A stretch of DNA of 62,290 nt, filler included, from Hausera hauseri (lineage: Eukaryota), in assembly GCA_046269625.1 (NCBI GenBank). It is 9 parts of 9 records of this genome, joined end to end, with 100 filler letters (N's around TTAATTAATTAA, not from the genome) between each part and the next. Parts side by side here need not be neighbours in the genome. Positions count along the whole stretch, not along the records: positions 4,806 to 12,688 come from JBJURY010896507.1; 8 more parts are not named here. The stretch is one strand, 5' to 3'. The notes beneath the pieces are model-generated. The model was not told where the DNA came from and made no database searches. It worked only from the letters and a program-made list of their open reading frames with translations. The stretch's first letter is position 1; every line of letters starts with the position of its first letter. Below, in pieces: positions 4,838 to 43,760 of this stretch. Made by a program: the position numbers and the translations under genes.

Positions 4838-5010
4838 AGATTAGTGCCTCGCTAGACTTACTTCAGCTGAGAATTAAATAACTACATACCGTCGATCAGC
4901 GCCATTCACACCAAGTAATTTAATACAGTTTGAGATTTAAAATTCGGGTCATAAGTTGGGTGAGATTTAAATAATAAGATTGTCTGAGAACAATTATTGA
5001 TAGGTTTAAG

Positions 5011-6473
5011 GTGAACCTCGATTTAAAAGATAAGGAAAATTCGCCTATACGCCAGACGCGTAGAAATACATATAGAGATAGCAAAAAATTAAACAAACGC
5101 TCATTCTCTGAGACTAGAGTAAATTTATCTAATTCAGATTTAACTGCTGTTGAGAGAACAGATAAGTTTAAAATTCCTCTTGCAGAAACTAAAGTTAATA
5201 AAGCAAAATTTGAGATTAATAATATGGCAGCAGATAACCCACCAGTGGCGCAAAAACTGGACATCTTTACTTTTTATTCTCTAAACCTGCCAGCATATGA
5301 CGGTGATCCGAACGGACTAAATGAATTCTTGAGAACTTATAAATTGCATGCAGAAGGTGCTAGTCTTACTCCCGAAGTGATGATTAAACGATTATCGTTA
5401 TACTTGAAGAATTTAGCCGCCGATGCTTATAGCTAGCTCACTAATGATGAAAAGAAATCTTGGTCTTCCATGATAGGATCTTTTAACTGTAAATTATTGC
5501 CGACAGTAACGCCGCAACAAAAACTTATGGCATTTCAGAATAGAGTACAACAGAAGGGTGAATCAGAAACCCAGTTTGCATTCGCATTGAAGAAACTTGC
5601 TAATAGTTATGTGAGCACATTGAGGATAACTAACGAAGAAAAAGCTAAAACCGAAACTGAACGCGAACTTGCAGAATAGGCAAACCCGCCAGATTTAGAC
5701 GTCATGATGATGACGCAATAAATAAATGGTATTTGGTCCCGAGATCTAGTGAAACAGTTGATTTTGACCAGACCTGAGAATTTTGAAAGGACTTTGCAAT
5801 TGGCCCAAGATTTAGAAATGGAACTGGACAGATATGCCAGACATAACGATAGAAACGATAGAAATGATAGAAATAATGATCGAAATGATAGAAATCGGAA
5901 TGACAATCGTGGAAGAGATGATAGACGATTCAATATTAATAGGAATTATGGAAATAAAAATAATAATGACTACAGAAATAGCCGAAACAAAATTTACGGT
6001 AATGACCGAAATACAAATAAGTCGAATCTTAATACGGATAGAAAGGGAGGAAACTACAAAGATTTAACTACTCAAACCGTTATGATGGTGACCGAAATAA
6101 TGATAGTCGACGGAACGTAGAGAATACACAAGGTTCGCCGAACCAGTACAATAGAAGCATAAACAGGTCTAAGTCACCTGTGAATAAAGACGGGCGACAA
6201 AGAATCGGCAGAAATGGGAATTTAGTGTGTTTCACATGCGGTATAGAAGTACACATTGCACGGTCATGTTCAAACCAACGGAGCGTTTCGTTTACCGAAC
6301 CTAATAAAACTAGCATGATTAAAGTCAAAGAGAACTTAGAAGCGAAATTTGGTGATCTTGGAGATACAGGTACTATTATCAACGTACAGGATTTGCGGAA
6401 ATTTCTAGATGCTCAACCTGAAACTACTAATCCACAGATTTTGACGACCAAAAAGAGTATGGAGATAAACTAA
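5011..6473 (+). pseudogene. gag: Gag (retrotransposon capsid region, NDR-repeat linker, CCHC zinc knuckle)
   Basis: YDGDP..LNEFLRTY...IKRLSLYL; FQNRVQQKGESETQFAFALKKLA; RND repeats; CFTCGIEVHIARSC. In-frame stops and one frameshift. Confidence 0.85.
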
Positions 6474-6479
6474 GACTAT

Positions 6480-9400
6480 TAGAAGTGTATCATGGTTTAG
6501 CAGAACCAGAAACTGAATTTGAGTATGCGATAGCGTCAAAGCGAATTGATATGAAACGAAAAAAGAGTATTTCGACGAGTAATAAAACAGCCGATACAGC
6601 AGGAACTTCAAAAGAAGTCAACTTAGATGCAGAGCCCGAGTTCACGGTTGAAATGTAGACAAGACTACCGAAGACGATATATTTAAAAAAATTTATGGAG
6701 CTATTAATACTTAAAATTACGAAGAATAGAGGCCGCAGCCCCTTATTGAAAACTGGATGTAGAATTCGTTCACGATCATCAGTAACTAAGGGGAAACCAG
6801 TAGAAATGAAAAATAGGAATATCGCTATAGAGGGCGGTCTAGAGTCTAGCTCGAATACACCAGAGATTGGTCCACTCACACCTATCGAGGCAAAAGAACC
6901 GGCAGAATAAATAAATGAAATTAACTAGATTTGCTCACTTCCCACTAGTGAAGAAGAAACGGGGAGCATAAATGATTTCGATTCAAGAAAACGAAAAGTC
7001 CGACGTTCGTGGAAAAATGCCAAGGAATTAAAGAAAATTAGAATTAGATGTCACGATCCGAAAATATTGCAGCAGAACTTAGAGAGGTTTAAGCAAATTA
7101 ACAAACAAGTAGATATATCCCGTAAAGAGCAACAATTTGCTGAGAGGTTGTATAAAAGTTTAAAATTATGTACTGAAGGAAAGCTCGATGAAGCAATCGA
7201 CTTAGGACAACCGAAAGAAGTGCCACCTGAAACGTTGCTAAAATGGAAGCGTAAATTAAAAACATGGATTAAAAGTGGAGTCGAATTTTCGGAAGGATGG
7301 AGCAAAAACGAAGATAGTTTTGATGTAAAAGTCGCTAAAGCTCAGACGCTACTGTCTACCTTAAATGCAAAACCTTAAAATTCTTAAAAATCTTTAAGCA
7401 AAACCTTAGAAGTCCGTAATGTAAAGCATATGATGGATGAAATTCGCTGTGCAATGATTAATCGGCTAAGAGAAAATCCGATAAATATTCCTCCCTTAAT
7501 GGAGATGATAAAAATCGCCTTTGCGGTACCCAAGCAATATACGAACCTAGAAAATCGTATCAAAATGGAAAATGAAAACCGGTTACAAATTTGTGGTTTG
7601 AGAAACCGAATTATGTTTCTAAATAACGAAGAAACCAAATACGTAATAAAAGCTTGTAGCATAGAATTCGATGAATACAACGATGAGTTTAGTCATATCA
7701 GCCGGATTATAAATTTCATAAAAGGTCCATATGATGAATTAATGGATGTGTATAAGATGCTAGATAAGGCTATATTAGCAAAGCCAATAATAGATAATCA
7801 AGTACGGGAATGGTCCGAATTAGTAGTGAGACTAAGTAAATTAGTGGACGACCGTAGGAAAGAATTTCTAGAAAGGGAGCCTTCTATTAAAAAACAATTA
7901 GAAGAAAGTGCACGTAACTTATATACAATACAAGCGGAAATAGATATCAGGACTCAATTAGAAGAATTATGACAATTGAATTTTAGGAAGAAGCAAGAAG
8001 TAACGATATTTGAAGAGATATATAAAATGATCGAAGAAACAGACTTTACAGAAAAGCGGAATATGACTTGCAATTTTTACCCTAGATTAAGAAACGTCCG
8101 ATTAGAAGGAGTCCAACATTTAACAGCTAAATCTATCGACGAAATTTCCATACAAGATATCGAAACCTTAGATATTTGTCCAAAACATAGAACAGCTTTA
8201 GAGGAAACGATGCGACTAAAACATAAACCACAAGAATGTATAGTCGAAACAGATCAGAATTGTCATACCCAGTTGAAAAAAATAAGAAACGACCAACATC
8301 TTAGTTTTGAAGAAGCTAAGTTGGTAAAGAAATTGCTTGACGCGATAGATCCCGATTCAAGAATCATCAATGAGATGTACGAGTTAGCTTTTCTCTTATT
8401 AGAAATGGCAGAAATTAATGATGAGAAGATGAGGCAATTCATGCCTAAAATAAGACAGGTTGAAGAAACATGCACTAAAACTAAACAAAGAACAACCAGG
8501 TTAGACGAACTAATAAAAGAGCTCGAAATCTACCGGAACAAATATGCTTTCACAGAATCGGAAATAAAACGGAAGACAAAATTTGTACAAAGATGGCAAA
8601 GAAATGTAATTATTGAACTAATTGATTACCACCAAAAGGGATTCATCCATTCTACTGAATTAGGCGAACTACTGAAAATGATTCAATATGCCCGGAGAAA
8701 CGGAATAGGTCTCCGAACTATGCAGATAAAAGAAATACAACCGAGATTGTAAGACATTCGAGAGAATATGCAAAGGACGAATACAGCACCAGTGGACTAT
8801 AGACTTCCAGACGTTGGAAATGAACCGGAATGGGATGCGCACTTAGATGCAGTAACGGCCGAAAATTCTGTGACGCCAGTACAGCTTAACGAATGGAAGC
8901 GTATCCGCAGAACAGTAGATTCAATGTGGAGATACTACTGGATTCAGCGCTAACTGAAAAAGATTTACTTAAACTAATTAACGTAAACATTACTGAAAAT
9001 AAGTTAAGACAACTTATTCCGACTTTGACTAAATTATCTAGTGAGAATATAATTTATAGCACGGTGCCGAAACTTTTGATAAGGAAATACGCTAAAATCG
9101 TAAGGGCTAAACCTGAGGTAACGATGAAAGTGTGGGTATCATCCAAGTGGACGGACGAAAAAGAATCTGAGTTAACTACGTATTCCTATGTAAGGGGCGT
9201 AAGAGAATGGCTAATCAATAATGGTGGAACAAACGAGTTAAACTATAGATTCTATTTTAGAGGTAGAATACTAGACGATTTTGAACAGCTAATAGACGTC
9301 GGTATCATCCCCGAAGAAACAAATCGAATAGTAGCGATAGTAGCTAATGAACAGACGAAAAAAGAAGCCACGCGTAAGGCTAAAACAGAACAATGTGTAG

Positions 9401-10050
9401 GACAAATTATGGGAGTCAAAGATGCTGCAATGTATTTCGATTATTTACAAACACACGAAGATAAGGAACAATACGACAAGAATTTAGTGCCACTGAGCAT
9501 AATGATAACAACCGTTACGAAACAGAAACGTCCGGTAGGCCGTCCCAGAAAATTCGTGAAGATATTGACTATAATGGAGAACTGATTAGAGAATTGAGAC
9601 AGATGTCGATTCCTATTTTCAGCACAGACAATGAACAATTAATCGAACTAATGAAGAATTTCATTCGAATTGTAAATTATGCAAGCCTTTGAGGAGGCAT
9701 ATTGGACGATAAAGAGAAGGCGATATTTAATGCAGCTAGGATAATGAGAAGTTCACGTTTTAAGTTATCAGAGTAACTTAACCGATGAGTCGGAGATTGA
9801 AAAGATCGTGGTAGAAAATTCGATAGATTAAATAAGAAAAGTACTACTGTATCTAGCTATCAAGACAAACCCCAATCGAGAAAATGAATTTGACAGAGCT
9901 ACAAGCTTGGCATGAAGAGCGGCTAGGAAATTACCTGAAGAAGTAAACTGGCCAAAATTATTTGATACAGAAGATAAAAGGACTAGTAATAGTACCAGAC
10001 TCGAGGATATGTTACGTAATTTCACAACAACAGATAATAGTAACCGGAAA
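6480..10050 (+). pseudogene. Long accessory region between Gag and Env (coiled-coil segments, Cys/His cluster, ubiquitin-like domain about 9124-9342, AT-hook 9526-9552)
   Basis: ORF pieces at 6695, 7067, 7430, 7976 and 8768 share one frame, separated by stops; YRFYFRGRILDDFEQLIDVGI; KRPVGRPRK. Confidence 0.65.
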
Positions 10051-11870
10051 AACGAATCCGACTGGTTAATCAGCTTACTCACCTTGATGGTGCTAATAAA
10101 ACAGTTAGGTACGACTGCGATAAATTTAGACTGGGACAGAAGTATTCTCTAATGGATTTAGAGGCATGCTAAGATGCCTGACCGCATAAATTAGAAATGG
10201 GGAAGAAATATTACTTCCTATATCAACAACAAGAATTAATATCGTTGGACGGAATGGAATGTATGTTGAGACGATCTCGTAGCATTTTTCACTGTGAATT
10301 AGGGAACGGACGTTCTTTAATAATCAAACCAACAACTCCAATCCCAATGAATTTGGAACCCCAGTATTGTAAGCAAGCCAAGGAAACCGAAAGATTAAAA
10401 TGGGATGGTATGGAACTAGAGATGCAACCAGGAAATATAATTAGGGCATATAAAGTAGTGGTTGGAAGACTAGACATGAATAATGGACATTGTAACGGAG
10501 CAGAGTATGACACCAGAAAAGGATTAGAAGCAAACGTAGTGGTCGTAGATTTCTATGAATCGGAGATGCGAGTACAGAAAGTAATGTTCCATAGCGTCAT
10601 CAAATTATATACCGAAAATCAAAAATGCCATTTACAGGACGGAACCTGCGCCTTTAGAAGTTCGGTTATAATATGGGAACCCCGTTCTGGAAGAAACTAT
10701 AAGTTCATCAAAATTAAGGAATTGAAATTTAACGAAACTACAGGGAAACAATACGCGAATAAATCCGATACCAACTCAAGAACACGCGAGGACGTATCAG
10801 AACACCCTACACCTACGATACTAATCTCCGACCAGCATGGACTAAAATTTATTAAGAAGGAAATGATCTCCCGTTGAGATGTTGTGATGTTCGCCACTAA
10901 CTATAAAGCATTTTTCGTCGTAGAAACGAAAATAAATACGAACTTATAAGCTAGAAACGCAGGACATTCGGATTGAAGATTACTTGAAAAACCGGGGCGA
11001 TTATTTTTATTACAAAGGCCAAGTTGGAATAGCCGAACTATACCACAAAATGATAACGAATGATTGTAAACTGGATAAGGAAATCATGAGGACAAAGCTG
11101 GCTCTTATCTGTGCTAACCCTGAGTTATCATCCTCAATAATTCCTATGAGAGAAGTAATTTTCAGTCGAGTTACTGGAGAAATCTTATTGATTTACAAGT
11201 GTGAGAAACGGGATATACCAACTAACGTTGAAGAGAAACGATGTATACAATAACTTACCGTTATCTACCAGAGCACCCCAAGATTGGCCATGCCACTTAC
11301 CACAGTATTGCTAGATAACGCAACTCAGCCAACAATCCTTAAGGATTGTAAGACAAGTTTAGGAGAACAAATGTTCAGGCGTAGCAAAACAAATTAGGTT
11401 AGTTTACCTAATGGAGGTATTACTGCCGCTCCAAATAAATTAACGGGAACAAACCTCGCGAAAGGGATCACCGGCGACAAATTTTAGGATTCCTCATCTA
11501 AAGGAATATATAGACCTAAGGAAATTGAAGCTTTCATATATTTCTCACCTTTCCACGACAGCGAACACGAGTTAAATCGAGCTATGGCCTTCGTAGTGGA
11601 TGATTCTCGATATCAAGCTAAATGGGAATCTTTGCTTGGTGTAAACCATTACCAGCGAATAACCACAGAAATACTCGACAAAATTTGGGAAGATTTTTAA
11701 TTTTTGGACAAGCCGCATCCGGAATTTTAGCGATATATTTTCTAATAGAAATTGTTAAGGCCGTCATCCAAGCAGTAATAAATAGGTATGAAATATTTGC
11801 ATTGACCGGATTTTCATGTAAAATACTAACGGCAATCATAATGCCTTTTGGAAAGTTCTTGAGAGCATAT
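10051..11870 (+). pseudogene. env: Chuvirus-like (class III/gB-type) envelope glycoprotein with hydrophobic signal and C-terminal TM
   Basis: WLISLLTLMVLI then, across a frameshift, YDCDK...YSLMDLEAC; C.....S..HC; GHCNG..Y....G...NVVV; CHLQDGTC...IIW; GEILLIYKC...C..LTVIY; KGIY; TM FLIFGQAASGILAIYFLIEIVKAVI. Confidence 0.75.
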
Positions 11871-12688
11871 GAAAAGAATAGATGGAAATCGGACGTACAA
11901 CGTCATGTCGGTTATCACAATCGCAAACGAAAAGCAAAACCTATGTTCTTGTACAAGCGGAAATTCACAAAACCTAATACGCGAAAAAATAATTCGGATG
12001 ATGACGAGCCTAAGGGAAGAGAAGTACTGCCAAGAACAGAAAGACACAAGACGTATTACGTCATTAAAGCACTATTGCCTATGCTACCTCCTACTGCTCC
12101 AGTCTATGAAGACTGTGACAAACGATCATTGAGCTCATATCAGACAGAAATCTATAAAAGGACAATTAGTTTAGAAGACCCATACGAAGGAACAAAACGT
12201 TATGGAGTCCTACGGAAAGTAAGTTATCGGCAGCTCGTGGATGACCCCAGAATATTGTATTCCCCGAGAAAGCCTCAGAATATAGAGACTAGACCGCCTG
12301 TCTGGGGAAATCAAAGGTTACAAACCTTCCAGAACATAGAACCACAGACTAACAATCGAGAACCATTAATTAATACTCATGAAACGGAGGAATTGGACAT
12401 CGAAAACAATGAATTATATCCAAATGCAGAACTAAGACAACTGTCGGAAAACATAGTATCCTCCCCAGAGATCCGAATCAAAGGACATAAAATATCAGCG
12501 ACCAAACGCCCAAAAGCCGCATCAAACTGTTTTGGAACAAAAAGAGAAGGAAGACCCTTCGCCAAAATCATTATTGAAGACTGGGAAGTTTATGCATTAA
12601 TAGACACAGGTTTTGAGATGTCTTACATTGAAAATGATTCAATACCTCAAACGCTAAGAGGACAATTATACCCACCATCTACAAAGGA
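11622..12688 (+). CDS. Env TM and tail fused in frame to a retropepsin aspartic protease (truncated by contig end)
   Basis: One uninterrupted ORF runs from the TM helices to RPFAKIII...VYALIDTGFEMSYI (DTG at 12603-12611). Confidence 0.85.
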
Positions 12689-19891: not shown

Positions 19892-22068
19892 GTAAACTTA
19901 ATAATGTTACTATCATGGATGCTTACCCTTTACCTTTGATAAAAGACATCTTACATTCGTTGCATAAAGCTACAATCTACTCCACTATAGACCTAGTAAA
20001 TGCCTACCACCAAATACCAGTAGCGCCTGAAGACATCAAGAATCGGCGATAACACCATTTGGCCTCTTCGAATACGCCTTCATGTCGTTTGGCTTAAAGA
20101 ACGTAGCCCAAACTTTTCAACGGCATATTGATTCTATCCTTTCAGGCCTCCCATTCGCTTACCCATATATCGACGATATACTGGTAGCATTATCTTCACC
20201 TAAGCAACACGCTGAACACCTCAAACTTGTTTTTCAACGCCTGCACAACAACAACTTACAGGTTAACTTCGCAAAATGCACATTCTTTCAAAAGAAAGTC
20301 AATTTCCTAAGCCACATCATCACGCCTGATGGTCACAGTCCACAGCCTGATAGAATTCACCAATTACGAAATATCGAACTGCCAAAAACTACAACTGATA
20401 AGCGCAGCTTTCTCGGTACTTTGCATTTCGTTCATAAGTATGTGCCACACTGCAGCCATTTAACTTCTCCTTTCGTTCAACTAAAAGCAGGGCCAAAGAA
20501 GAAACCTTTATATTGGACGCCAGAACTTTTAAATCTGTTTGATGAGCTCCGCAAAAATCTTAAAACCATTGAAATCTTGGATTATCCAAAACCTAATGCC
20601 GATCTCATCCTGACAACCGACGCATCAACCACAGTTGTCGGAGCGGTTCTCCATCAATTATCTCAAGGAATAAATGAACCACTAGAATTCTTTTCACGTG
20701 AGCTCCAGCCACAAGAATGCCGTTATTCCACATTGGATAGGGAACTCCTGGCCATCGTTTTAGTTCTTAAACATTTTTCACATTTACTTATCGCCTGGTC
20801 TTTCACCATTCAAACAGACCACAAGCCCTCGTTCACGTAATGAATATGAAGCACCATCACTTCGACAAAAACGTCATATTTCGTACTTGTCAACGTTCAA
20901 CTTTAAAATCTGCCACATTTCTGGCACAGATAATTTAATAGCGGATTTTTTGTCACGATCGGTTAGTGCAATTAGCGTCATGCCTATTTTTACTAAAGAA
21001 CAATTGGTTCAGAATCCTCCTTCTACTGAAATACTTAAACAATATAAATCTGTCCAAATCATTGATGGCGTAGCCATGGACACGTCGACACCTGGGCACC
21101 ATTTGACAATTTTGGCACCTTCTCTTCAACAAACAGCATTTAACCATATTCATTCGTTGCATCACCCAGATTCGAAGGCTACATTCCGCCTACTCAAACG
21201 TCACGTCACATGGCCATCAATGAGATCTGACGTACAGGGTTGGGTTAGGCAATATGTGGCTTACCAAAAATTCAAAGTAGCTAAGCATCTTAAGCCACCA
21301 TTATTCCATTTCCCATGTACATCCCGTTTCGAATCAGTTCACATAGATATTGTTGGTCCATTACCTTCTGATAATGGCCACCAGTTCATCTTAACAATGA
21401 TGGACCGCGCATCTCGTTGGCCAGAGGCTGTTTCCTTGCGCTCCATCAACGCTGACTCCATCGCCGATGCATTCATAAGGGTTTGGATTTGTCGGTTCGG
21501 TTCACCACGCTATATTACCACAGATCAAGGCCCCCAGTTCGAATCGAACCTATTCAAATCCTTAGTTAATCGACTGGGCATAAACCATATTCATACTACT
21601 CCATACCATTCCCAATCGAACGGCTTATTGGAGCGATTTCACCGAACTCTTAAAATCTCCCTGAAAATTCTAGCCGAAACACATACAAACTGGACTACTA
21701 TCCTTCCATTCGTATTACTTGGGTGGCGCAACATATCATTTACCACCACCGGTTGCGCACCCGCTGAAGCACTCTTCAGCACCACAATTCGTGCACTTTT
21801 TGAACTGACCGATTTAGACAACACACCGACTGACGAAACAATTAGGTCCGCACAAGATCATTTCATCCGGCTAAGTCGAGACTCTTTCTGTAAAATAATA
21901 CACGGCGACAAAACATATTTACCTGACTCCCTATTTAATGCAAAGTTTGTATGGTTGAAAAATCCGTCACCATCTGGATTCTCAATATTACTTCACACAC
22001 AATTTCAATACTCAAAAACGGCAAAAAAACGTGTACATAACGAACGTAAAACCTGCGTTCTTCGTTAA
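19892..22068 (+). pseudogene. pol: Ty3/Gypsy Pol: RT, RNase H, integrase (CsRn1-like), frameshifted
   Basis: DAYPLP, AYHQIP, MSFGLKN, YIDD, TTDAS, DRELLAI, TDHKP, HIDIVGPLP, TDQGPQFES, NGLLERFHRTLK. Confidence 0.95.
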
Positions 22069-22433: not shown

Positions 22434-22600
22434 GGGGGGGGGGGGAAAGAGTAATGTGGTGCCGCGGCTGTAGACGTCACCACAATCCTGGAGATGTATC
22501 TGTCACCCGGTAACGGTAGACGGGAATGCTCCACGTCGTGGTCCTCTTTGGTCAGTCCTTAGCCCGTCTAGCTGCCACTCAGCCAGTGATTTTGCTCCTT
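22434..22600 (+). mobile_element. Polypurine tract and start of the 3' LTR (TGTGGTGCC at 22455), truncated
   Basis: G-run plus AAAGAGTAA immediately before TG, downstream of the integrase. Confidence 0.7.
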
Positions 22601-22604
22601 TCTT

Positions 22605-22916
22605 AAACCGACATTTTCACCAAACGTCAACACACTTCAGTTTATACCGAGAGTACAAAAACTTTGTGAAATGAAAGCCCAATCACGAATTAACTTGAAT
22701 TTTCTGACGAAATTATCCCAGTTTATGCAATTGCAAGGATCCGACAAATTGAAAGTACCAAATATCAACGGACGACATCTAGATCCGCACAAATTACACA
22801 AATTAGTTCGTAAAAATGCCGGCTATGATCATGTGACCATTAACAAACTCTGGCAGAAAATTGGTATGAAATTGGGTGTAAGGTTCCACCTTACAACAAA
22901 ATTTAAAAAAATATAA
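22605..22916 (+). pseudogene. KDM5/JARID1-like fragment (end of JmjN linker plus ARID domain)
   Basis: KPTFSPNVNTLQFIPRVQKLCEMKAQSRINLNFLTKLSQFMQLQGS..KVP...LD..KL...V...GY..V...KLW.KIG.KLG parallels KDM5 [22 protein letters not shown]...ELQGS.LKIP. Confidence 0.75.
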
Positions 22917-23359
22917 TGTAAATCGAACAAAAGTTCCCAAAAATATAAAATCACATCTGGGAAAAATAAAAAGTTTTTTAACGAAATTTGAAATTAATAA
23001 CCTTAAAGTTTAAATTTTCTAACATGGAAAATTACAAATTTTACGGATTCATTAATAGAAAAATTTTCTAATAACAAAATCTAAAATCTAAATCACGGGT
23101 TCGCCTAACATAAGAACCAAAAATATATTCAAATATAGCCAAAGCAAAAGTAAACAAAAAAAACGGATTACGAGTGCTGAATTGACCAGCACTTGTTAAC
23201 AATCAAGATCTGTGGATTTAATCTATTTGTTTAAATCCACAGTAAAAGATTGAACAGTTACTTTGAAAAAAAAAACGAAAAGTCAGTCGAAGATTTTTCC
23301 AGAAAAGAAAAAGGAAACTTTCAAGAAAAGTTGAACGTTTCAAAAAGGGTACGGCCACA

Positions 23360-24469
23360 GCCCCTAGTAAATTTACCGGGACAAACCTAATCAAAAGATT
23401 ATCGGAAGATAAATTCGAAGATACAGCTAATAAAGGAATTTATAGGCCAAAGGACATAGAAACTTTTAGGCAATTTTTAGCATTTCTGCGACAGAAAACT
23501 TATGAACTGAATCGGGCCATGTCAGTGGTCATGGATGACACCCGCTTTCAAGCAAAATGGGAATCGTTACTCGGCGCTAATTACTATCAGAGAGTAACTT
23601 CTAAAATATTGTATAAGATTTGGGGAAGATTTATGATTTTCGGACAAGCTGCATCTAAATTCCTAGCCATCTACTTTTTAGTTCAGCTGATTAAAGCCGT
23701 AATCCAAGCCGTTATAAACGAATATGAAATATTCACATTAACAGGAATTTCCTGTAAAATTTTTACTGCAATCATCATGCATTTTGGAAAAATACTTAAG
23801 GCCTACAAAGAAAATCGATAAAAAAATGATGTAGAACGCCACGTCGGGTACTATAATCGCAAACGATGAGGGAGGCCCTCAATTTTATATAGATGTAAAA
23901 ACAAGAAAACAATAATAAGAAAGGATGATTCAGATGATGACGAGCCTAGGGGAGAAGTGAGTTCTAGAATGAAAAAGCATAAGACGTACTCAGTGATCAA
24001 TGCGCCACTGCCTATCATGCCACCAATCGCATCAATATATGAAGACTGTGACCGTAGATCGGTCATATCATGTAAGTCCGAAATCTACCAAAAAAGGAAA
24101 CAATATAGAGTATTACAGAAAATGAATGTTATCAACCAAGGACAAACAGAAAACTACCACGGAATATTGTACTCGAAAACGATACCGCGTCACATAGAAT
24201 CAAAATCAACGATCTGGGAGAACCAGAAACTGTGTTCGATCTCGGGTTCACTACCTCGGGGACCGCTCATTGGCAGTCGCGCCAATGAGGTGGCGGATAT
24301 TAATTTATACCCGAGCGGAGAATTAAGACAATTAAGGCAAGATATTCTTTCATCGCCAGAGATAACAATAAATGGACACAGAGTCTCTACTATAAAACAG
24401 TCGAAGATAGCGTCAAATTGCTTCGGAACAGTAGTAGAAGGAAGACCGTTCGCTAAAATACATATCAAA
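23360..24469 (+). mobile_element. Second, diverged copy of the env-tail-protease region of the 4806-12688 element
   Basis: KGIYRPKDIE, FMIFGQAAS..LAIYFL, DDDEPRG, YEDCD.RS, LYP..ELRQL, SNCFGT..EGRPFAKI all collinear; TM part and protease-proximal part share one frame. Confidence 0.9.
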
Positions 24470-25410: not shown

Positions 25411-26340
25411 CACAATTCCCCTGTTTTAAAATGAATTAATGAGTCAATGGAAATTGTTATTTCACTACATTAAAGAAATGAGGTTTTTGGTATTTTACAT
25501 TTCTGCTATAATCAACAAAGAATGCAAGCAAATATGAATTCTATAGAATACACTAAACGTTAATAGTGAGAAAACACTTTCATTTACTCGCTGGGCTGTG
25601 GGCACTCGTCCAGCTTTGTTTGTCTGGTGTTTATATTGGCTTAAATTAAAGTTGCTGTAACTTTGAGTTATCAACTTGTGTAAAATTTTGCATCAGTGCT
25701 GAAAAAGTTCATTTATTTTTCCATGCACACGTTACACGACATAATGAGCTTGACATCTTTTCTTTGTGGCCTGTATCTTCTTGTTGCTGTAATTATAATA
25801 TCTCTCTGTCTCTCTCTCCTCTGCATTCGGACAGGTCCACCCTGTGATGTGCGTGTTCCAATGTACTAGGCAGGTCACTGATCTTCCCTTTATGGGTCTG
25901 GTCTAATGCGTTGCACAGTGGTTTAGTGTGCCTGGGAGTGCTTGTTACTCAGGCATTCTCAGTTTATGGCAACACAGTGATCGGTCGTGTTATCATTTGC
26001 TGTGCGTCTTTTGGATTATTTCTAAATTATTTCTGAATTACCAGTGGATTAATATGAACGATTCACACACCGCCATGAGCGGACAACGAAGTGGTTTGTG
26101 GTGAAATGTTTTAAAATTCGACTTAAAGCTTATATATTGAGTTTTTGTGACATTTATGAACAATGACGGTAAGAATTACCCATTTCAGATAATTTACCAG
26201 TGTTCGATAGGTTTCACCTGGCGTGGTCTTACGTAATCTTACGGCAACGCCTCAGTCTGATTTTGCGTAATTTTACGTGTGGTTTGTCGAGCTATCCGGC
26301 TGATTACAAATGAATGTCGCGCTGAGGTAATATGTGAACA

Positions 26341-28614
26341 ATGGAAAATGCAGAGAGAGGCGTACTACTGGCTACATCTTCCAAGCCAACGACAAGGCGA
26401 ACAACCAGCAAAGCGTATGATTTGAACAAAGAGAGGGCTGTTCGAAGAAAACTCACCACGTGGAATACACCACCCAACGTTACGATAAAACATACAAATA
26501 AAGGACAATGTTGTACCATCACATTTCACAATACACAACACTATGAACTGTTCCGACATCTAGCCATCGAACACTACCAAAACTATAATATTGACTCGAG
26601 AACCGATAAACAGAACGCCCATGTTGAAGACAAAATAACCACGGCTTCTGTTACTATACATCTATATCATACAAAAAATAAGATACTAACACAAGGCACT
26701 GCCGAGTATCTCAGAATCTGGCTGGAGAACGAATTCCAGAATCTTCAAGCATCAGCTCTAGGCCAGACCACAGCAATGTTTATATATGATCCAGCATCCC
26801 CAACAAACACACTGAATTTCCCAAATACATCGGCTCCACTAGCGATCATGGACTGTAGCATTGCGCCAAACAAGCTGGCCATTGAAGATGGGAATGTCCC
26901 TCACAACCCTACGCCATCCACTGACGCTACCACTAACCATCTGTCTGGCGAAGATACATGTACAATTGTTATCCCATCTAAGGACGGCGTCACTAGAAGC
27001 ACCACCTGCGTTGAGACACAAGCTCATACACCACAAACATCCCAAATCCAGCTAATAGAGATTGAAAATCCCACAGTAGCAGACGTTGCATCAAGTCATG
27101 AGGTGATGGGAAATCTCAACGAACCTAATGTTCCAATAAAGCTGACTTGTTGTGAGGAGCAAATAACGAACCTTCGCAGCTGTATAAGCAACATGGTGGA
27201 CAAGTTAACTGCAGATCTAAAATCAGAACTGACTGCTATCAAAACAGAAATGCACTTCCTTCGAGAAGAAAACATGAAACTTATATCTCATATTAAACAA
27301 CTCGAAAAGAAGGTAGAAAACAAGAAAGAAGGCAGTCTTGATGACAACATGCCCACAACTACTGACAGCCACCCACAAAACAACTCTGCTTTATCCACTG
27401 AGGCAGCCTCGACTTGCAGCAATGAATATTTATCACACTCTGAGACTGCAGCAAATACAACTACAACCACCATGCTAGCGAAAGAAGCGCCAACAAAAAA
27501 TAAAACCTTTCCAATAGAGGTCAAAATTACGAACCGTCAACAAGAGACAGAGAAGAAACTGCCGCATAAAATTACAGATTCGCAAACCTCACGTGGCACT
27601 CCACAGCCAAGTCTCAATCAAAGTGAGTACTCTGATAATGACAACCAATGGCAAGTAAAACAACGGCGACATCGACACCTGCCACAGCGACACGTTCAAA
27701 ACGACGCCACCAGCGTTATAATTGGCGACTCTTTGTTAAACGGCATTCATGCCGACAAAATGTCCATTAGCCCAGACGAGGTGGTCGCAGTACTTGTACT
27801 GCCAGGTGCTGGGGTGGAACGACTGACTTACGAAATGAGTCGCCTTAAAACCAATGGGAGTGTTAACAAGACGACAATCCACGTTGGTATTAATGACTGT
27901 TCAAATGGCCGCGTCTTACACGAGAATGATCTTCATAAAATGATCATTACGGCTAAAAAAGTATTCCCAAGCAGCCAAATCTATATGTCCTCTATTATTC
28001 CCCCCAGCCAAGGCAGCCTTCGTAGAATAGTGGACAAGACCAACAACGTGATCAATGCGTTCTGTAACAAATACGCCCTTGGTTTTATCAATAATACACC
28101 ATTCTTCACATCGGGCTCGGGGGCACCAAAAAAGGCCCTATACAGAGACGCGATCCACACATCCAAACTAGGAACAAGCTATCTGGCGAAAAATATAAAA
28201 TTTCCTGAAAGGACAAGTCATGAACGCCGAATGCCGCAGCGTGAATACAAAGCTGTTGACCCAGCCAATAGGCAACAACAGAAAATCTCGCCACTACTGC
28301 CCGCACCTAAAACAACGGGCGAAACTCAACGTTTGCCATATCAGCAAAGTCTGCCATATAATGAAGCATTTCCAGCGCTTCCCACAAGGCAAGATCCTCC
28401 AGCCAGCTGGGCAGACCTGACCATGGCTAATCCAGGCACCAGTAATTCCCCAGTCACAAGAAACACAGCAGGGAAACCGGCCTTAGCCAATCACTTTTCT
28501 GATGGCTCAGAACGATCTGTTCACAGCCCATCGATAGTTCATTATCTTATGCAGTACAACCCTGTAATCTTACGACAAGCTTTGCAGATGTCGTTACAGG
28601 GCATCACTCAGTGA
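26341..28614 (+). CDS. CR1/L2-group LINE ORF1 with coiled coil and SGNH/GDSL esterase domain
   Basis: 757-aa open ORF; IIGDSL, PGAG, HVGIND and DAIH esterase blocks; coiled coil LKSELTAIKTEMHFLREENMKL. Confidence 0.9.
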   Translation: MENAERGVLLATSSKPTTRRTTSKAYDLNKERAVRRKLTTWNTPPNVTIKHTNKGQCCTITFHNTQHYELFRHLAIEHYQNYNIDSRTDKQNAHVEDKITTASVTIHLYHTKNKILTQGTAEYLRIWLENEFQNLQASALGQTTAMFIYDPASPTNTLNFPNTSAPLAIMDCSIAPNKLAIEDGNVPHNPTPSTDATTNHLSGEDTCTIVIPSKDGVTRSTTCVETQAHTPQTSQIQLIEIENPTVADVASSHEVMGNLNEPNVPIKLTCCEEQITNLRSCISNMVDKLTADLKSELTAIKTEMHFLREENMKLISHIKQLEKKVENKKEGSLDDNMPTTTDSHPQNNSALSTEAASTCSNEYLSHSETAANTTTTTMLAKEAPTKNKTFPIEVKITNRQQETEKKLPHKITDSQTSRGTPQPSLNQSEYSDNDNQWQVKQRRHRHLPQRHVQNDATSVIIGDSLLNGIHADKMSISPDEVVAVLVLPGAGVERLTYEMSRLKTNGSVNKTTIHVGINDCSNGRVLHENDLHKMIITAKKVFPSSQIYMSSIIPPSQGSLRRIVDKTNNVINAFCNKYALGFINNTPFFTSGSGAPKKALYRDAIHTSKLGTSYLAKNIKFPERTSHERRMPQREYKAVDPANRQQQKISPLLPAPKTTGETQRLPYQQSLPYNEAFPALPTRQDPPASWADLTMANPGTSNSPVTRNTAGKPALANHFSDGSERSVHSPSIVHYLMQYNPVILRQALQMSLQGITQ

Positions 28615-29217
28615 TAGTATCTGCATTAAACTAATATGTGCTCATTTAATTTGATCTATGGAATGTTGTCTACATACGCTTTCTCTCGGCAACGCATTGA
28701 TTTTTATAACTAACAAGTATTTTGTTTAAGAAAACCTGTTTTGACACTCAACACTATAGAGAAGTGTTAGTTTGCTGTTCTATTCACGAACACAAAGAAC
28801 TTTTGACAATTTGCACTAATTAGTGCCTTTTAACATTTTTTTTTTCTGTTCTGCTACACATTATAGAGAAACTATTGACTGTTTTATTTTTCTTCTGTCC
28901 TAAACGGAAGGCACAACTTTTATCTTGGTTGTTTCACTTTGTTCTCTGTACAGGTGCAGATCACGGTCACTGACATTTGAAATCATAATCATCAGTTAGC
29001 TTGACGTTTATGGACGTTTGAGTTCGTCTTTGCGTATTTGACTGTGTTGAAAATATTGATGCATTCCTGTCTGTTTTTAACTTGCCACATTTTATAGAGT
29101 GCGTCACTACAACAATTACTGTGTAATTTCTGTTCATCCGTTATTGATAATTTTGACTTTTTCTTGTTATACATTGTATTTCATTCGCATTTTGCCTTTT
29201 CTTAAAAACGATACTTA

Positions 29218-31368
29218 ATGACTCAACCAATCAAAACCGAGTATCCAAATCAACATGGTCTCAGGATTGGACATCTTAACATTTGTCATCTTTTTAACAT
29301 CGGTAAACTGACCGAACTAAACTCTCTCTTACACAACAACAACAATAATTTCCACATTTTTGGTCTAACAGAAACAAGACTGAATCAACATATTTTGGAT
29401 TCAGAGCTCCAGATTACTAACTACAATATTCATCGAAAAGATCCGACAATTAAATTACAGACTGGGGTGGCAGTATATGTACATACAAGTCTCAAAGTAA
29501 TACGTCGACTAGACCTTGAATGTCCTGAAGTCGAGTGTATGTGGTTGGAAGTTTGTCTTCCACACACATCTCCTCTCTTGATATGCATTCTGTACCGGAA
29601 TCCCGAGGCCAGAGTAAGATGGTTTGATCATTTTACAGACATGATGGATGTTGTTTTTAATACCTCTCTTGAAGTAATAATCTTAGGAGACTTTAACATT
29701 GACGCCACGAAACAGAATGCAAACTGGGAAAATCTCTACTCCCTGTTTAACTTACAACAGATGATATCACTACCGACCCGAGTCACGGACAAGTCGTCCA
29801 CATGCATAGATCATATCTATGTTAGCAACACTGCCCGAATTCTAGAAGTGTGCGTCCCTGTCTGCGGTCTTAGTGATCACTATCCGATCTGCTGCACGTG
29901 GACTAAGAAGGGTGTTCGAATCCCCAAATTACGCCACCATATTGTTCATAATCGTTCATTCAAAAATTTTAATGAATCGGTTTTTCTGGCAGACCTATTG
30001 GCGGCACCCTTCCATAATGTGTACGGGTCATCCACTGCCAGCCAAGCCTTGGAAACGTGGCTAAAAACCTTCATAACGGTCTTGGACTGCCATGCTCCCC
30101 TGCGTGCAAAACGTGTGCAATCTAAAACTATACCACCTTGGATAACCTCGGAATACTTAGCCCTGAGGCGCCAAAGAGACTATTTTAAAAAAATAGGGGA
30201 CCACGCAAACTACAAAAAATACAGGAACCTATCGCAATATGTACTGAGAAAATCTAAAAAAGATCACTTTACAGCGATAGTAGAAAATGGTAAAAACTCT
30301 TCAAAAATATGGGATGCAATAAACAAACTTACAAACACAAACCAAAGCAACCAATACCACTCCAGTAATATCTCTGCCGATAACTTTCGTCACTTCTTTT
30401 CCTCAAACACAAAAGCCGCAGAAACAAACTGTCCTCCTTCTGATTACAATGATCTTTCTAAATTTATTCAGTCTAAACTGAATGGCACTGATCTTCCTGA
30501 CCTACCTTTTCTTTCTGCTACAGAAGTAGTCTCCTTAATCAGAAGCCTGCCTCGCAAGAAATCTTGTGGTATAGATGGAATTTCACCACGTATCCTGCAT
30601 TTAGCAGCCCCTGTGGTAGCTGAATCTCTCACATACATATATAACTTATGTATTGCTCAAAAGACTTTCCCGGACCACATGAAAGCAGGGATCGTGATTC
30701 CAGTCCCCAAAAAAGGCAACCCTGATCTTGTAGAAAACTATAGACCGATTTCGTTACTTTCTGCAATCTCCAAGCCTCTCGAGCGACATATCTATAATCA
30801 TATGCAAATTTCTATTAATAAATTTAATCTCTTACATGAGAATCAATCGGGCTTTAGGCGTAACCACTCCTGTCAGTCTCTACTAACAAAACTCACCGAG
30901 ATATGGCACTCAAACATAAACTGTAATAAAATCAATGGTGCCCTGTTGATAGATTTATGCAAAGCCTTTGACAGAATAGACCACCGTATACTTTTACATA
31001 AACTAAAATTGTATAAGTTTCATTCGAACGTCATCTCAATGGTTCAGTCCTTTCTTGAAAATCAAACACAACGTGTTCTCCATAATAATACATTATCCCA
31101 GCCCTATACTGTATCGGTTGGGGTTCCACAGGGCTCAATAATGGGCCCTCTACTTTTTAATATATATGTCAACGATCTTCTGTTAACACTCCCACATGAT
31201 GAAAGTCTCATGTTTGCCGATGATACAACTCTGACAGTAGCTAGCACAGACATGCACTCTGTAGAATCCCGACTACAGCACCATTTAAATGTACTACATC
31301 GGTGGTGCCTAGCCAATAAAATGTCCATTAATATTGCCAAGACGAAGTCGTTAATAGTATCCACAAGA
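29218..31368 (+). CDS. CR1/L2-group LINE ORF2 (APE endonuclease plus reverse transcriptase), cut by contig end
   Basis: LTETRL, LGDFN, IDHI, SDH; NYRPISLL, QSGFR, KAFD, GVPQGS..GPLLF, FADD; no stops. Confidence 0.95.
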
Positions 31369-31491
31369 NNNNNNNNNNNNNNNNNNNNNNNNNNNNNNNN
31401 NNNNNNNNNNNNTTAATTAATTAANNNNNNNNNNNNNNNNNNNNNNNNNNNNNNNNNNNNNNNNNNNNTGTTGACTTGAAGTACTAATTAA

Positions 31492-32025: not shown

Positions 32026-32129
32026 TCTAGAAAACCTTAATGATTATGAAAAACCTCGTGTTGATTGCCCCAAAATTGTGAAAACCGTAGAGACAATACA
32101 TTCCGTTCAAAATCCGACGAAATACGATT

Positions 32130-32748
32130 CGGTCAAAAGACAACCATTGTCACGATCAGTCTTGTCCAGTTCATGAGAAATCCGCTACCTTATCTCATGG
32201 TCGGCATGGATGGTGGCGGTCTCGTCCGTTTCCAAATTGACCTATTGAGATGGACACACCAAAAGCTGGATGCCGTACTGACGGAACAACGACGAGTCAC
32301 CATCGGTGCTGGCCCGTACATGCGATTGTTATTGTTGACATCACTCAATCAATCACACGAATTGCGTGTATTTGACTGTTTCAATCATCTGAGTATCATC
32401 CATTATAGCGACGGACGACTGTTATTTAGCAGTACTAATTTGAAAAACGAGGTATCGTCAATGCGTCCATTGAACAGCAGTGTTTACAGAAACTATCTCG
32501 TACTCGTCAGCGAGCCAAACGTCATATTCGGTAGTATCGATAAAATAGAGAAATTGCACGTGCACAGTGTCCATCTCGTCGAGAGTCCACGACGTATGGC
32601 AATTCTGAAGGGAACCGACACAATCGGTTTAGTCACAGTCCGATTTGATACATTCCACGATGGTTCATTTCGTCCGGTTCGTTCATCAGTCTTAGCGGAT
32701 GAGAAATTGTCGAGGAGTGCCAGTCCGAGTCCGGATTACGTGAAATAA
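32130..32748 (+). pseudogene. DDB1: DDB1-like beta-propeller fragment
   Basis: YLMVGMDGGGL...RRVTIG...LLFSSTNLK..V..M.PLNS..Y...L......FGSIDKIEKLHVHSVHLVESPRR parallels DDB1 (KVTLGTQP...LVFSNVNLK...[23 protein letters not shown]); both ends are missing. Confidence 0.8.
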
Positions 32749-33039
32749 ACGGCGATAAGGAAAATACGGGACATCGAATCGTCTCAGTTGCTCGTCCTCC
32801 ATTAGACGTCGATGGAATCGATTCATGTGCATAGTTATTTCTGTTCTGAGGATGATGCAGTAACAGGCGATCTTTATCATAGCTGGTATGATTTAATGGA
32901 TTATTACCTATATATTTATGATTTTGGATAAACAATTCCTATTCAATATATTGCTGATAATCGCAGAAACTTTAATTTTGATCCCAAAGGACTTCGGTGT
33001 TATACAACAGATTATGATAACACTTCAAGTGGAGAATTC

Positions 33040-35563
33040 GGGCACCCCGCATTTTGGTGCCCGTCCCGCCGAGGCGGAGGTCCTGACCGCCAAACTTGCG
33101 CCGGTCGGTCTGGGGGCACTTTCGACGTCGGTCCCAGGTCACGCTTCCAGGCGCACCACTACTCTCCCCATTTACTTTTTTTTCTATAATAATACCCACA
33201 AATATACGGCCAACACAAAACACCTACACATTTCCACCCTTCAGACCCGCATCTCTTCCTCCCTTGGGTCTTCCGACTTCCTTCTTACTCATCACGGCGC
33301 TATCATTTATCTTAACGAAATTTCCTCTTTTCCTAATCTAACTTGCTTCGACATACATCTCCGTATCCGTGGTGGAATGAATTCCCCACCAACCATTGAC
33401 ACCATGGATACAACTACCACAAATAAACCAATACCCATCCTTTATTACTCCAGACCAAACCCTCCACTTTCTTCAATCCATGCAAATCTCCATAAAAACC
33501 CTACCAACACTTTTCACAGCACTGAATACTTTGTAGGTAACGAAAAATCTAGTAAGACGTGGCTTCATTTCCACCAACACTGGCTCCAGTCTAATGCTAT
33601 CACTGAATCCTTATCTAAAGCCTATAGCTTGCTCTATCATCTCCCAAACTCCATCAAAGCCTCGATACATAATCTACTAGAAATCTTTCAAAATTCTGAC
33701 CCGTATACCCAATTATTCGACGCTGTATTAAAGCAGACTGAATCCTTAATTGACTCCATAATGCAGCGTGTCTTCAACGAAAATGCGCTGGGCACGCAAA
33801 AACTCAGTTACTTCTTACGCACTTTACTAGCACACTTGCGCACTCTTGGAGTAACTCAGAAATATAACCCGGATCTTCTACGCCATTATTTTATGAACGC
33901 TTTACCTATCCAAATCCGGACCATTCTTACCGTGGTGGGAGACTCCACGCAGCTTGAAAAATTGGCCGAATTGGCTGACAGGACATACGACGTCCTAAAC
34001 ATAAATTCGTAACCCGTAGTTTCAGCAGCAGTTGCTGCTAACGACATACAAACAACCAACATGCCCATAGAACAGCAGCTAAATCAGCTACGTGCTGAAA
34101 ATATTGCATTGCAGGCAACTATCAACAACAAATAATAAACTAAATAAATTGTCTTTGTCCCGACGAGGGGGCTTTGCCGCTGACCGTACCCCTTCCACGT
34201 CACGAAACCGCTTACCATCGCCTGCGCGTTCGTCGATCTGCTACTACCACAGCAGACTCAACACAAATGCTCAGAAATGCTGTCTTGGTTGCCAATTTTA
34301 CAATAGTAAATTTTCTTCCAACAAGGTTATCTGCATTTACCATGCAAGATTCAAAAATCAAGCATGTAAATGTATTCCCGGCTGCACCTTCAAATCCAAT
34401 ACGAACGACGGACGTATTGCCTTCACTTGAAACATTCGTCCCACTTCTCCTTTTCCAAAAACTAACTTCGCCACCAGAAGTCACGGCAACCGCTGGCGAA
34501 GGCACTTCTTCACACTCTAAACGCCGACATGTCTCTTTCGCAGTCTTCACGCTAAAAGCCGCAATCACTGCCCCTACAAATCAATCTCTTGACTTCCTTA
34601 TTGATACAGGGGCAGCCATTTTTCTATTACCGCAAACCTTTCCTACACAAAACTCTCGTTTCAAAATCAAGTTTTTATATACTGCTTCAGGCCAGCCGAT
34701 GCACATCTCGGGCACGGCTACAGTGTCTTTCACGCTACCAAATTTCTCTACATCTTTCCGCTGGAGGTTCACAGTCGCTAATGTCCAGTCGGCAATCCTT
34801 GGATCTGACTTTCTCTCGCACTACAATCTACTGGTTGACTGCAGCCAGCGATGTTTGAGGAAAGGCACCGTTGGCGACATTTCTGGACATGTTAATAACG
34901 TTTCGACTACCGCGCAGTTGACCGTGAGGCGGAAGTCAATCTTAAAAAAGGCCGCAAATAATTCGATTTTTTATAACAATAATTCGAATCTTCATAATAA
35001 TAATTCAGTTCGAAAATTTTTAAACAATAACTTTGATATACGATCGAGATTTGATGTCGATAAGTGTGGTGCTACCACCAACGCTAACTCCTTCGACGGA
35101 AATACCTCAGCCAACACCATTTTCAATTCAACCATTTTACACCAAATACCACTTGGCTGCACGTCATCTAACAACTCACACATCGCATCCGCCACCACTC
35201 AAACCGTTCCACCACTTTCACCGAATCTATCACAGCTACGTACCATGTTACAGCAAATCATCAACAAATCATGTCCACGAGTACTTAAAAAAGACCGTAC
35301 TTTTACTCCCGCAAACAGCGCCTTACACCACATAGTCACACAGCACCAACGTCCAATACGCCACAAAGTACGGCCTCTGTCACCTCGCCGTAGACAGGCC
35401 GTAGAAGCCGAATTTCTTGAGCTTGAACGTTCTGGCATAGTACGCCGTTCCAAATCTCCTTGGTCTTCACCGTTACACGTCGTACAAAAAAAGGACGGTA
35501 CCTTTAGACCATGTGGTGATTACCGACAGCTTAACAACTTGACCATCATGGACGCATATCCTT
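33040..35563 (+). mobile_element. CsRn1-like Ty3/Gypsy element, 5' part: LTR end, PBS-like TGG at 33055, ubiquitin-like leader, Gag with two CHCC fingers, protease, start of RT
   Basis: Gag ...FMNALPIQIRTIL...LAELAD; CYYH...AQKC..GC and CIYH...ACKC.PGC; FLIDTGA; ILGSDFL; [24 protein letters not shown]. Confidence 0.92.
34456..34501 (+). promoter_or_regulatory. Probable -1 ribosomal frameshift signal (gag/pol)
   Basis: Imperfect slippery run CAAAAAC, then TAA, then stem CTTCGCCA...TGGCGAAG, just upstream of the protease. Confidence 0.55.
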
Positions 35564-35663
35564 NNNNNNNNNNNNNNNNNNNNNNNNNNNNNNNNNNNNN
35601 NNNNNNNTTAATTAATTAANNNNNNNNNNNNNNNNNNNNNNNNNNNNNNNNNNNNNNNNNNNN

Positions 35664-36304: not shown

Positions 36305-36594
36305 AGTGTGTATGTATTACTCCACTCACTACTAAAAACCTGACAAATGTGTATGTATTACCCCACACAGTACAAAAAATCTGACAAGTGTGTATGTATT
36401 ACCTCACTCACTACTAAAAACCTGACAAGTGTTTATGTATTACTCCACTCAGTACTAAAAACCTGACAAGTGTGTATGTTTTACTCCACTCTATACTAAA
36501 AACCTGACAAGTGTGTATGTATTACCCCACTCAGTACGAAAAACCTGACAAGTGTGTATTTGTTACCCCACTCAGTACTAAAAACCTGACAAGT
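36305..36594 (+). repeat. Minisatellite, about 41-bp unit, about 7 copies
   Basis: Tandem AAGTGTGTATGTATTACyCCACTCAGTACTAAAAACCTGAC. Confidence 0.92.
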
Positions 36595-42951: not shown

Positions 42952-43760
42952 TGTAGTGATCGGTACCTGCCCTGCTTTATTCATTTAGTTATTCTTTAGT
43001 ATTCTGTATCAGCCCAGCTCTGACCTTAGTGATCTGCCCCTGCTCTGTGCTTTAGTTTAATTATTCTTCATGTAACATGTTTTGTTTTATTGGTTCTCCA
43101 GTCCAGCTCCTGCTCTGTGTTTTAATTTAATTATTCTTCATGTAACGTGTTTTGTTTTATTGGTTCTCCAGTCCTGCTCCTGCTCTGTGTTTTAATTTAA
43201 TTATTCTTCATGTAACATGTTTTGTTTTATTGGTTCTCCAGTCCTGCTCCTGCTCTGTGCTTTAGTTTAATTATTCTTCATGTAACATGTTTTGTTTTAT
43301 TGGTTCTCCAGTCCAGCTCCTGCGTTTAATTCTTCAGTTGCTGTGTTTTGGTTCTCCAATCCTGCTCTGTGCTTTAGTTTAATTATTCTCCATGTAACGT
43401 GTTGTTTTAATTAGTTCTCCTGTCCTGTACTGATCTGTACTCTTAGTTAATTACTCCCCAGGTGTTTTGTGTTCAGTTTGATTATGACTTGCCTTTATAC
43501 TCTGAGCTCTCAGGCAGGGGAGCATTAAGTGTAAATGCCTGCACCTTCACGGTCAGCTTCTAATTTCCTGTTTCCTAGCGTCCTGGTATTCCGAGTATTC
43601 CCTCGAGTCATGAGTAACTCTGCTGCCCTGTCAGCTTCCTATGTTTTGTTATTGCCTTTTTTGTAATTAAAGACTGTTTTGCTGCACTCGGAGTCTTGCT
43701 TGCATTTGGGTCTCAACCAACACCAAAACCTAGGTGTAGTGATTGTTCTTTGACAACTTA
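42952..43760 (+). mobile_element. Probable solo LTR containing a 70-bp minisatellite (43040-43450)
   Basis: TGT start, ATTAAA signal, CTTGCATTTGGGTC motif, TGACA end; at least 4 tandem 70-bp units. Confidence 0.55.

Follow-up and report, generated by a model that had tools for sequence, protein, structure and literature searches.

In the 62,290-nucleotide stretch of Hausera hauseri DNA analysed here (the window), a broken retroelement carries a candidate ALIX-binding motif of the form LYPxxxLxxL on the spacer that joins its Env membrane segment to its aspartic protease, with a TSG101-type PTAP upstream on the same spacer. We give about an even chance (roughly 0.5) to the reading that the LYP motif is an ALIX late domain on a cytosolic Env-Pol spacer and PTAP an optional addition, ALIX binding being a prediction from sequence. 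The type of element and the motif types are already known; the new part is the placement of the motifs behind an Env anchor.

The window consists of nine contigs joined by N44-TTAATTAATTAA-N44 linkers, and since these are separate contigs, adjacency across the gaps does not represent a true neighbourhood. The contig at 4806-12688 holds the body of a broken LTR retroelement (referred to as copy 1), in the order Gag-like region with CCHC, long coiled region, likely ubiquitin-like domain, signal-like segment, Env, membrane segment, spacer and protease start (Table 1). Copy 1 is dead, because it contains stops and several frame changes. By its sequence it is a Burro/GYPSM1-like Ty3/gypsy element, whose contig ends at 12688 within the protease and leaves the LTRs and RT out of view. 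The planarian Burro/GYPSM1 is described as having a Gag with CCHC, a long coiled region, Ubi/SUMO-like and Bcl-2-like domains, and an Env of mononegavirus-like type that lies between gag and pol in the same frame, followed by the protease, with Pol in one polyprotein; copy 1 shares with it the Gag CCHC, the coiled region, probably the ubiquitin/SUMO-like domain, the in-frame Env and the protease (PMC6431247, available text). The Bcl-2-like domain was matched only weakly and only in the relative P0010 (E 0.001, below cut-off). The likeness to Burro by itself makes a flatworm the probable host.

Table 1. Features of the two element copies (positions along the window)
Feature	Position	Strand	Evidence or remark
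Gag-like region, broken, with CCHC zinc knuckle at ~6225-6272	4978..6470	+	zf-CCHC E 0.028, weak
Likely ubiquitin/SUMO-like domain, placed as in Burro between Gag and Env	9091..9369	+	Atlas neighbours PF00240 and PF11976 at 0.88-0.90
Hydrophobic signal-like segment directly upstream of Env	10063..10110	+	Sequence; equal position in P0008, P0010 and L001
Chuvirus/gB-type Env ectodomain, stop-interrupted, frame changes near 10100, 10930 and 11690	10089..11697	+	Pfam PF24664 on 10182-10874 and 10936-11250; tblastn with relatives
Env membrane segment: TM at ~11724-11780, then weaker amphipathic helix at ~11793-11849	11685..11870	+	PF24664 E 1.3e-10; hydropathy
Spacer of 227 aa from Env membrane segment to protease; basic at its start and diverged mid-way; cytosolic and disordered by prediction	11871..12551	+	
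PPTAPVY, TSG101-type PTAP motif, seen in this subfamily only	12087..12107	+	P[TS]AP itself at 12090-12101
ELYPNAELRQL, ALIX-type long motif (LYPxxxLxxL), copy 1	12411..12443	+	
Aspartic protease, N-terminal part, ALIDTG with Asp at 12603, cut by contig end	12552..12686	+	RVP E 0.015, below cut-off; equal position in relatives
Copy 2: 5'-truncated Env end, TM, spacer with two stops, protease start	23345..24469	+	
PPIASIY, copy 2 counterpart of PPTAPVY	24020-24040	+	
NLYPSGELRQL, copy 2	24302-24334	+	

Pfam PF24664 scores above cut-off on four segments of the window, which identifies the Env as mononegavirus/gB-type. A Vps36_ESCRT-II match in the Env ectodomain (Pfam E 0.008, below cut-off) was dismissed as spurious. 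The likely ubiquitin/SUMO-like domain has a tblastn match to the relative P0008 (E 6.6e-5); for the wider region 8890-9582, an AF2 model (pLDDT 43.5) was too poor for a fold search, and a sequence search against PDB gave no match. A third gB-type Env fragment lies at 59500-57450 on the minus strand, where it immediately follows a Gag-like region that has several CCHC knuckles; this fragment (minus, ~58500-57450) ends before the TM and is uninformative for spacer motifs.

A motif scan and the reading frame bear out the preliminary description as to the positions of all four motifs (Table 1) and as to the copy-1 pair lying between the Env TM and the protease. A single open frame in copy 1 (11622-12686) contains the Env membrane segment, both motifs, which stand 108 residues apart, and the D-T-G of the protease. 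In a six-frame scan of the whole window, P[TS]AP occurs once in total, and the two LYPxxxLxxL matches are those of copy 1 and copy 2. About one P[TS]AP is expected by chance in 62 kb by a rough estimate; shuffling the copy-1 spacer 20,000 times produced PTAP in 0.6% of cases, LYPx3L in 0.5%, and the combination of P[TS]AP and [LIM]YPx(1 or 3)[LI] in 0.01%.

A late motif on this spacer would need to face the cytosol. Behind the copy-1 TM there are 18 K/R vs 3 D/E, and no further TM precedes the protease. By hydropathy, the first hydrophobic segment of the relatives is clearly TM-like and the second weaker and amphipathic, while in the window copies the scores of the two helices are closer. Pol must be cytosolic, and from this we infer that the spacer is too; this predicted topology is supported by the one strong TM, the positive-inside charge and the lack of a later TM. 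For disorder, an AF2 model of the relative P0004 (9-sequence alignment, mean pLDDT 61.9) places residues 161-218, including IYPTI, in an unstructured stretch outside the protease fold, which begins near 222; the spacer pLDDT is under 50, a value that points to disorder but may reflect just the poor alignment.

For comparison beyond the window, we counted seven distinct relatives with an open spacer from Env TM to protease (P0002, P0003, P0004, P0008, P0014, P0015 and L001). P0010 was omitted since it ends in the TM region, as was P0011, which belongs to the P0014 cluster and ends at a stop; P0005 and P0012 were each counted once, via their cluster mates P0008 and P0015. A metagenome scan yielded at least one related locus; word-index protein searches with P0001 and searches of viral contigs and genome contigs returned no relatives, and an Atlas search with P0001 gave no usable match. 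Env TM, spacer and protease stand in one frame in copy 1 and in 7/7 relatives. The TM blocks of the relatives are 24-37% identical to that of copy 1, and the spacers are essentially unalignable save P0008 with L001.

Tyr-Pro nevertheless recurs in these spacers, in 5/7 relatives (IYPLL, IYPTI, LYPVDQIEEI, MYPDTNRI and HYPQI; expected 1.48, P 0.004) and absent from P0002 and P0014. [LIM]YP occurs in four of the seven vs 0.26 expected, with none of 20,000 shuffle sets as high, and YPx(1 or 3)[LI] likewise in four (expected 0.39, P 0.00025). By density, [LIM]YP occurs 4 times in 774 spacer residues vs 3 times in 14,317 residues elsewhere in five of the relatives (Fisher P 2e-4). The ALIX-type motif thus appears conserved above background for the widened pattern, Ile having been added to the class after the relatives' sequences were seen; strict forms are rarer, LYP and YPx(1 or 3)L each being found in 1/7 (P 0.09 and P 0.16, respectively). 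YP ranks second of 400 dipeptides in enrichment, behind VA, so that its enrichment is valid solely as a prior hypothesis. P0001, P0006 and P0008 match [LM]YPxxx[LI]xx[LI], which we take to be the ELM pattern for ALIX motifs, and P0015, with MYPxxxxI, is one residue off the pattern spacing. Short forms (IYPLL, IYPTI, HYPQI) and long forms alternate among the relatives, which resembles the short and long classes into which ALIX motifs fall (PMC8728146). PPxY is present in the spacer of one of the seven (P0008 PPRY, residue 1174; P 0.08).

The preliminary description had read the two motifs as TSG101- and ALIX-binding sites, and the two halves fare differently. The ALIX half is backed by the distant relatives just described. 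P[TS]AP, judged from the sequences at hand, is not conserved above background: it is found in 0/7 relatives' spacers, and in copy 2, where it is lost, 4/7 residues of PPTAPVY are kept, the same as in neighbouring residues. The pair, PTAP then LYP, is therefore a feature of this subfamily, and the comparison with HIV p6 holds for the subfamily but not as a family trait.

The comparison of copy 1 with copy 2, in which motif conservation was set against the linker, adds less. The LYP 10-mer is 8/10 identical, a level equalled by 23/226 ten-residue windows. The earlier remark that the surrounding linker differs strongly applies to the mid-spacer (12159-12410; 25/84 residues or 30% identical) and not to the flanks, which are 53-64% identical. 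By itself the two-copy comparison is a weak argument for motif conservation, as strong divergence is limited to the mid-spacer. Between the copies pS is 0.77-0.90, near saturation, and pN 0.09-0.33 throughout, which indicates two old sister lineages, both once under selection; PPIASIY was thus wrongly called decayed, since it belongs to an old sister lineage and not to a decayed duplicate. Around copy 2 we further observed a separate gypsy RT-RNaseH-integrase upstream (19894-22065, plus strand), whose pieces share 28-51% identity with the Pol of the relatives, and an ARID/BRIGHT domain fragment (22590-22913, plus strand; Pfam E 4e-15) just upstream of the truncated Env, possibly a captured piece of a host gene.

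Variation inside the host family was assessed with the contigs of run X1; run X2 was left out owing to thin coverage of the stretch. The family is very abundant, with 4351 contigs aligned on 1289 bases (copies at least 80% alike). There are 96 variable sites from 12075 to 12460, and among the best-supported 40 of these (shares 28-99%, half synonymous) none alters P-T-A-P or the L-Y-P, L and L of the long motif, within which the sole amino-acid change falls at an x position. With no variant in PTAP among these best 40 of 96 sites, PTAP seems to prevail in the subfamily and not to be a private mutation. The sparing of the motifs relative to the mid-spacer is not significant on the same 40 of 96 sites (0/9 vs 17/101 codons changed, P 0.21). 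Some joints in run X1 skip across each motif. Internal deletions sparing both motifs (12 joints) were considered and dropped, as joints near the stretch ends are invisible and other joints cross both motifs.

The motifs had also been placed on Env rather than on Gag. They do lie behind the Env anchor, and the Gag-like region of copy 1 has no P[TS]AP, PPxY or YPxL in a motif scan; the part of the window from Gag to Env lacks both P[TS]AP and PPxY and contains a single FYPRL, at 8075. The parts of the relatives before Env (147-526 residues, with no whole Gag among them) have none of the patterns. This placement is qualified by the single broken Gag that was checked and by the likely translation of the element as one Gag-Env-Pol polyprotein: P0003 runs from a knuckle-like start through Env, PR, RT, RH and IN in a single chain, and Burro is described similarly in the available text (PMC6431247). 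If the whole is one polyprotein, the contrast of Env and Gag concerns the location of the motifs after processing. Giant single polyproteins are seen among the relatives, P0015 having 4844 aa and 8 D[TS]G protease-like motifs (a loose pattern), L001 3 and P0008 2, and all three have extra membrane segments past the integrase.

The likeness to the position of HIV p6 is loose. In HIV, p6 is translated in the frame of Gag and not in that of the protease, whereas in copy 1 ~5.8 kb and the whole Env intervene between zinc knuckle and motifs, and the motifs share the protease frame, so that they do not form an HIV p6-like Gag domain.

We propose that LYPxxxLxxL (12414-12443) would act as an ALIX-binding late motif on the spacer joining Env to protease in this Burro-like element. 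The signal-like segment would direct Env to the lumen of the ER, and the TM of Env would bring the chain back to the cytosol, so that Env trimers might display the spacer and Pol at the cytosolic face, where capsids would gather. The motif would there recruit ALIX and ESCRT-III, and an enveloped particle could be pinched off, either into endosomes or at the plasma membrane. Later the protease may cut itself loose at a distinct site ~25-30 residues upstream of the catalytic Asp, so that the motif stays with Env. PTAP would give this subfamily an additional, optional route to ESCRT. A broader reading is that in Burro-like gag-env-pol elements the late domain has left Gag for the cytosolic spacer of an Env-Pol precursor anchored in the membrane. 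This precursor would drive the budding of these invertebrate elements as true enveloped particles, with scission by ALIX/ESCRT-III wired to the presence of Env and Pol in the bud, and subfamilies would exchange ALIX, TSG101 and NEDD4 motifs as retroviruses do; we advance this reading tentatively and think it rather more apt to fail than to hold. The presence of the motifs had been taken to support real extracellular particles, which it does not demonstrate. Late-domain-like motifs have been reported in HSV-1 proteins, where their function is disputed (PMC12607790, available text).

Instead of genome-particle scission, an ALIX-bound motif may serve to route Env or Env-Pol to multivesicular bodies, where it would be turned over, or to ordinary extracellular vesicles. 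There is a precedent in the membrane receptor PAR1, whose YPX3L motif is bound by the V domain of ALIX and directs MVB/lysosomal sorting independently of ubiquitin (PMC3341166, available text), and the motif here is likewise on a membrane protein. It is, however, linked to Pol, in a mobile element that has retained a gB-type fusogen, where degradation of Env-Pol would presumably cost enzymes, and it is accompanied by PTAP in the window and PPRY in P0008, which are virus-type late motifs. We therefore regard sorting for turnover or vesicles as unlikely.

The hydrophobic residue followed by Tyr-Pro could also be a cleavage site of the element's own aspartic protease, trimming the Env tail or freeing Pol. 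Tyr-Pro and Phe-Pro junctions are classic retroviral cleavage sites, and LYPAL of MLV doubles as the MA/p12 junction. The conserved core is indeed Tyr-Pro with its preceding hydrophobic residue, always upstream of the first protease, while the downstream residues vary. Yet FP replaces YP in 0/7 relatives, and YP precedes the first protease in 5/7 relatives vs 1/10 later protease-like motifs (P 0.018), with a distance from Tyr to the catalytic Asp that ranges from 30 to 62 among the relatives. A hydrophobic strand 25-30 residues before the Asp is, by eye, a better candidate for the protease start, and it coexists with YP in P0003 and P0004. Late-motif and cleavage roles could coexist at Tyr-Pro, but we consider cleavage as the explanation of the motif quite improbable.

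Chance matches in a proline-rich, fast-evolving spacer are a likely enough origin for PTAP alone, given its distribution among relatives and its background-level identity in copy 2. For the ALIX-type motif, the sample of seven relatives is small and linked by descent, and the pattern was widened afterwards; [LIM]YP is nonetheless enriched in held-out relatives, and LYPVDQIEEI of P0008 has the exact long form found in the window (P 0.0005) despite Env TM blocks 24% identical and spacers that are barely alignable, so that chance for the pair as a whole is very doubtful. It is highly improbable that the tyrosines are ordinary YxxPhi signals for adaptor-protein (AP-2/AP-3) sorting of a glycoprotein tail, for although YPLL, YPTI and YPQI of three relatives fit that form, YPNA of the window, YPSG of copy 2, YPVD of P0008 and YPDT of P0015 do not, YxxPhi in general is not enriched in the spacer (5/7, expected 4.0, P 0.35), and such a signal does not need Pro.

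With respect to known systems, GAG-ENV-POL errantiviruses with HSV/gB-type Env occur in nematodes, bryozoans and flatworms (Chary and Hayashi, PMC13524379) and have gene order and Env class in common with copy 1; that paper analyses ectodomains. In its available text the survey deals with ectodomains and copy number and not with egress, the terms 'ESCRT', 'late domain', 'budding' and 'cytoplasmic' are absent, and the supplement rows examined are ectodomain pieces only. Likewise, the available text of the Burro review makes no mention of late domains, ESCRT, ALIX, TSG101 or budding (PMC6431247). In the accessible literature on late domains or ESCRT in retrotransposons, gypsy, errantiviruses and Burro, subscription journals being outside its coverage, we found no such report.

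Retroviral late domains, as given in the sources available to us, comprise PTAP and LYPXnL of HIV-1 p6, that of EIAV p9, and PSAP, LYPAL and PPPY of MLV. Copy 1 is like them in motif types, order, likely disordered context and varying sets among relatives; it differs in that retroviral late domains sit in Gag, whereas its candidate motifs are behind the Env anchor and in the protease frame. Closer to the proposed arrangement, the PAR1 YPX3L, bluetongue NS3 and the Env-dependent release of foamy virus have ESCRT recruitment or budding steered from the cytosolic part of a membrane protein, although, as far as these accounts go, none is a retrotransposon Env-Pol fusion and the late motif of foamy virus is in Gag. 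Fused ubiquitin is able to replace a late domain (PMC2958808, available text), so the likely ubiquitin/SUMO-like domain of copy 1, also present in P0008, could be a further ESCRT entry.

These observations touch on whether env-bearing gypsy elements outside insects form infectious particles and how they leave cells, and a conserved ALIX motif would be a specific and cheap handle on their egress. If the proposal is true, a retroelement budding signal would be on Env-Pol instead of Gag, tying scission to the incorporation of Pol. When ESCRT action is delayed in HIV, the protease sets enzymes free prematurely (PMC4900648, available text).

Several other features were observed in the window. On the minus strand, 26338-31416 contains a LINE-type endonuclease-RT ORF and a GDSL-esterase-like ORF, and 32065-35619 contains Gag/protease-like ORFs and a beta-propeller ORF (PF23726, E 1e-15). 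An MA3-domain fragment is at 56984-57541 on the plus strand (E 1e-4), and a minus-strand piece at ~54700-55000 presumably resembles choline/ethanolamine kinase. Tandem arrays occupy 36305-36594, 43034-43418 and 46978-49325, with periods of 41, 70 and ~353 respectively.
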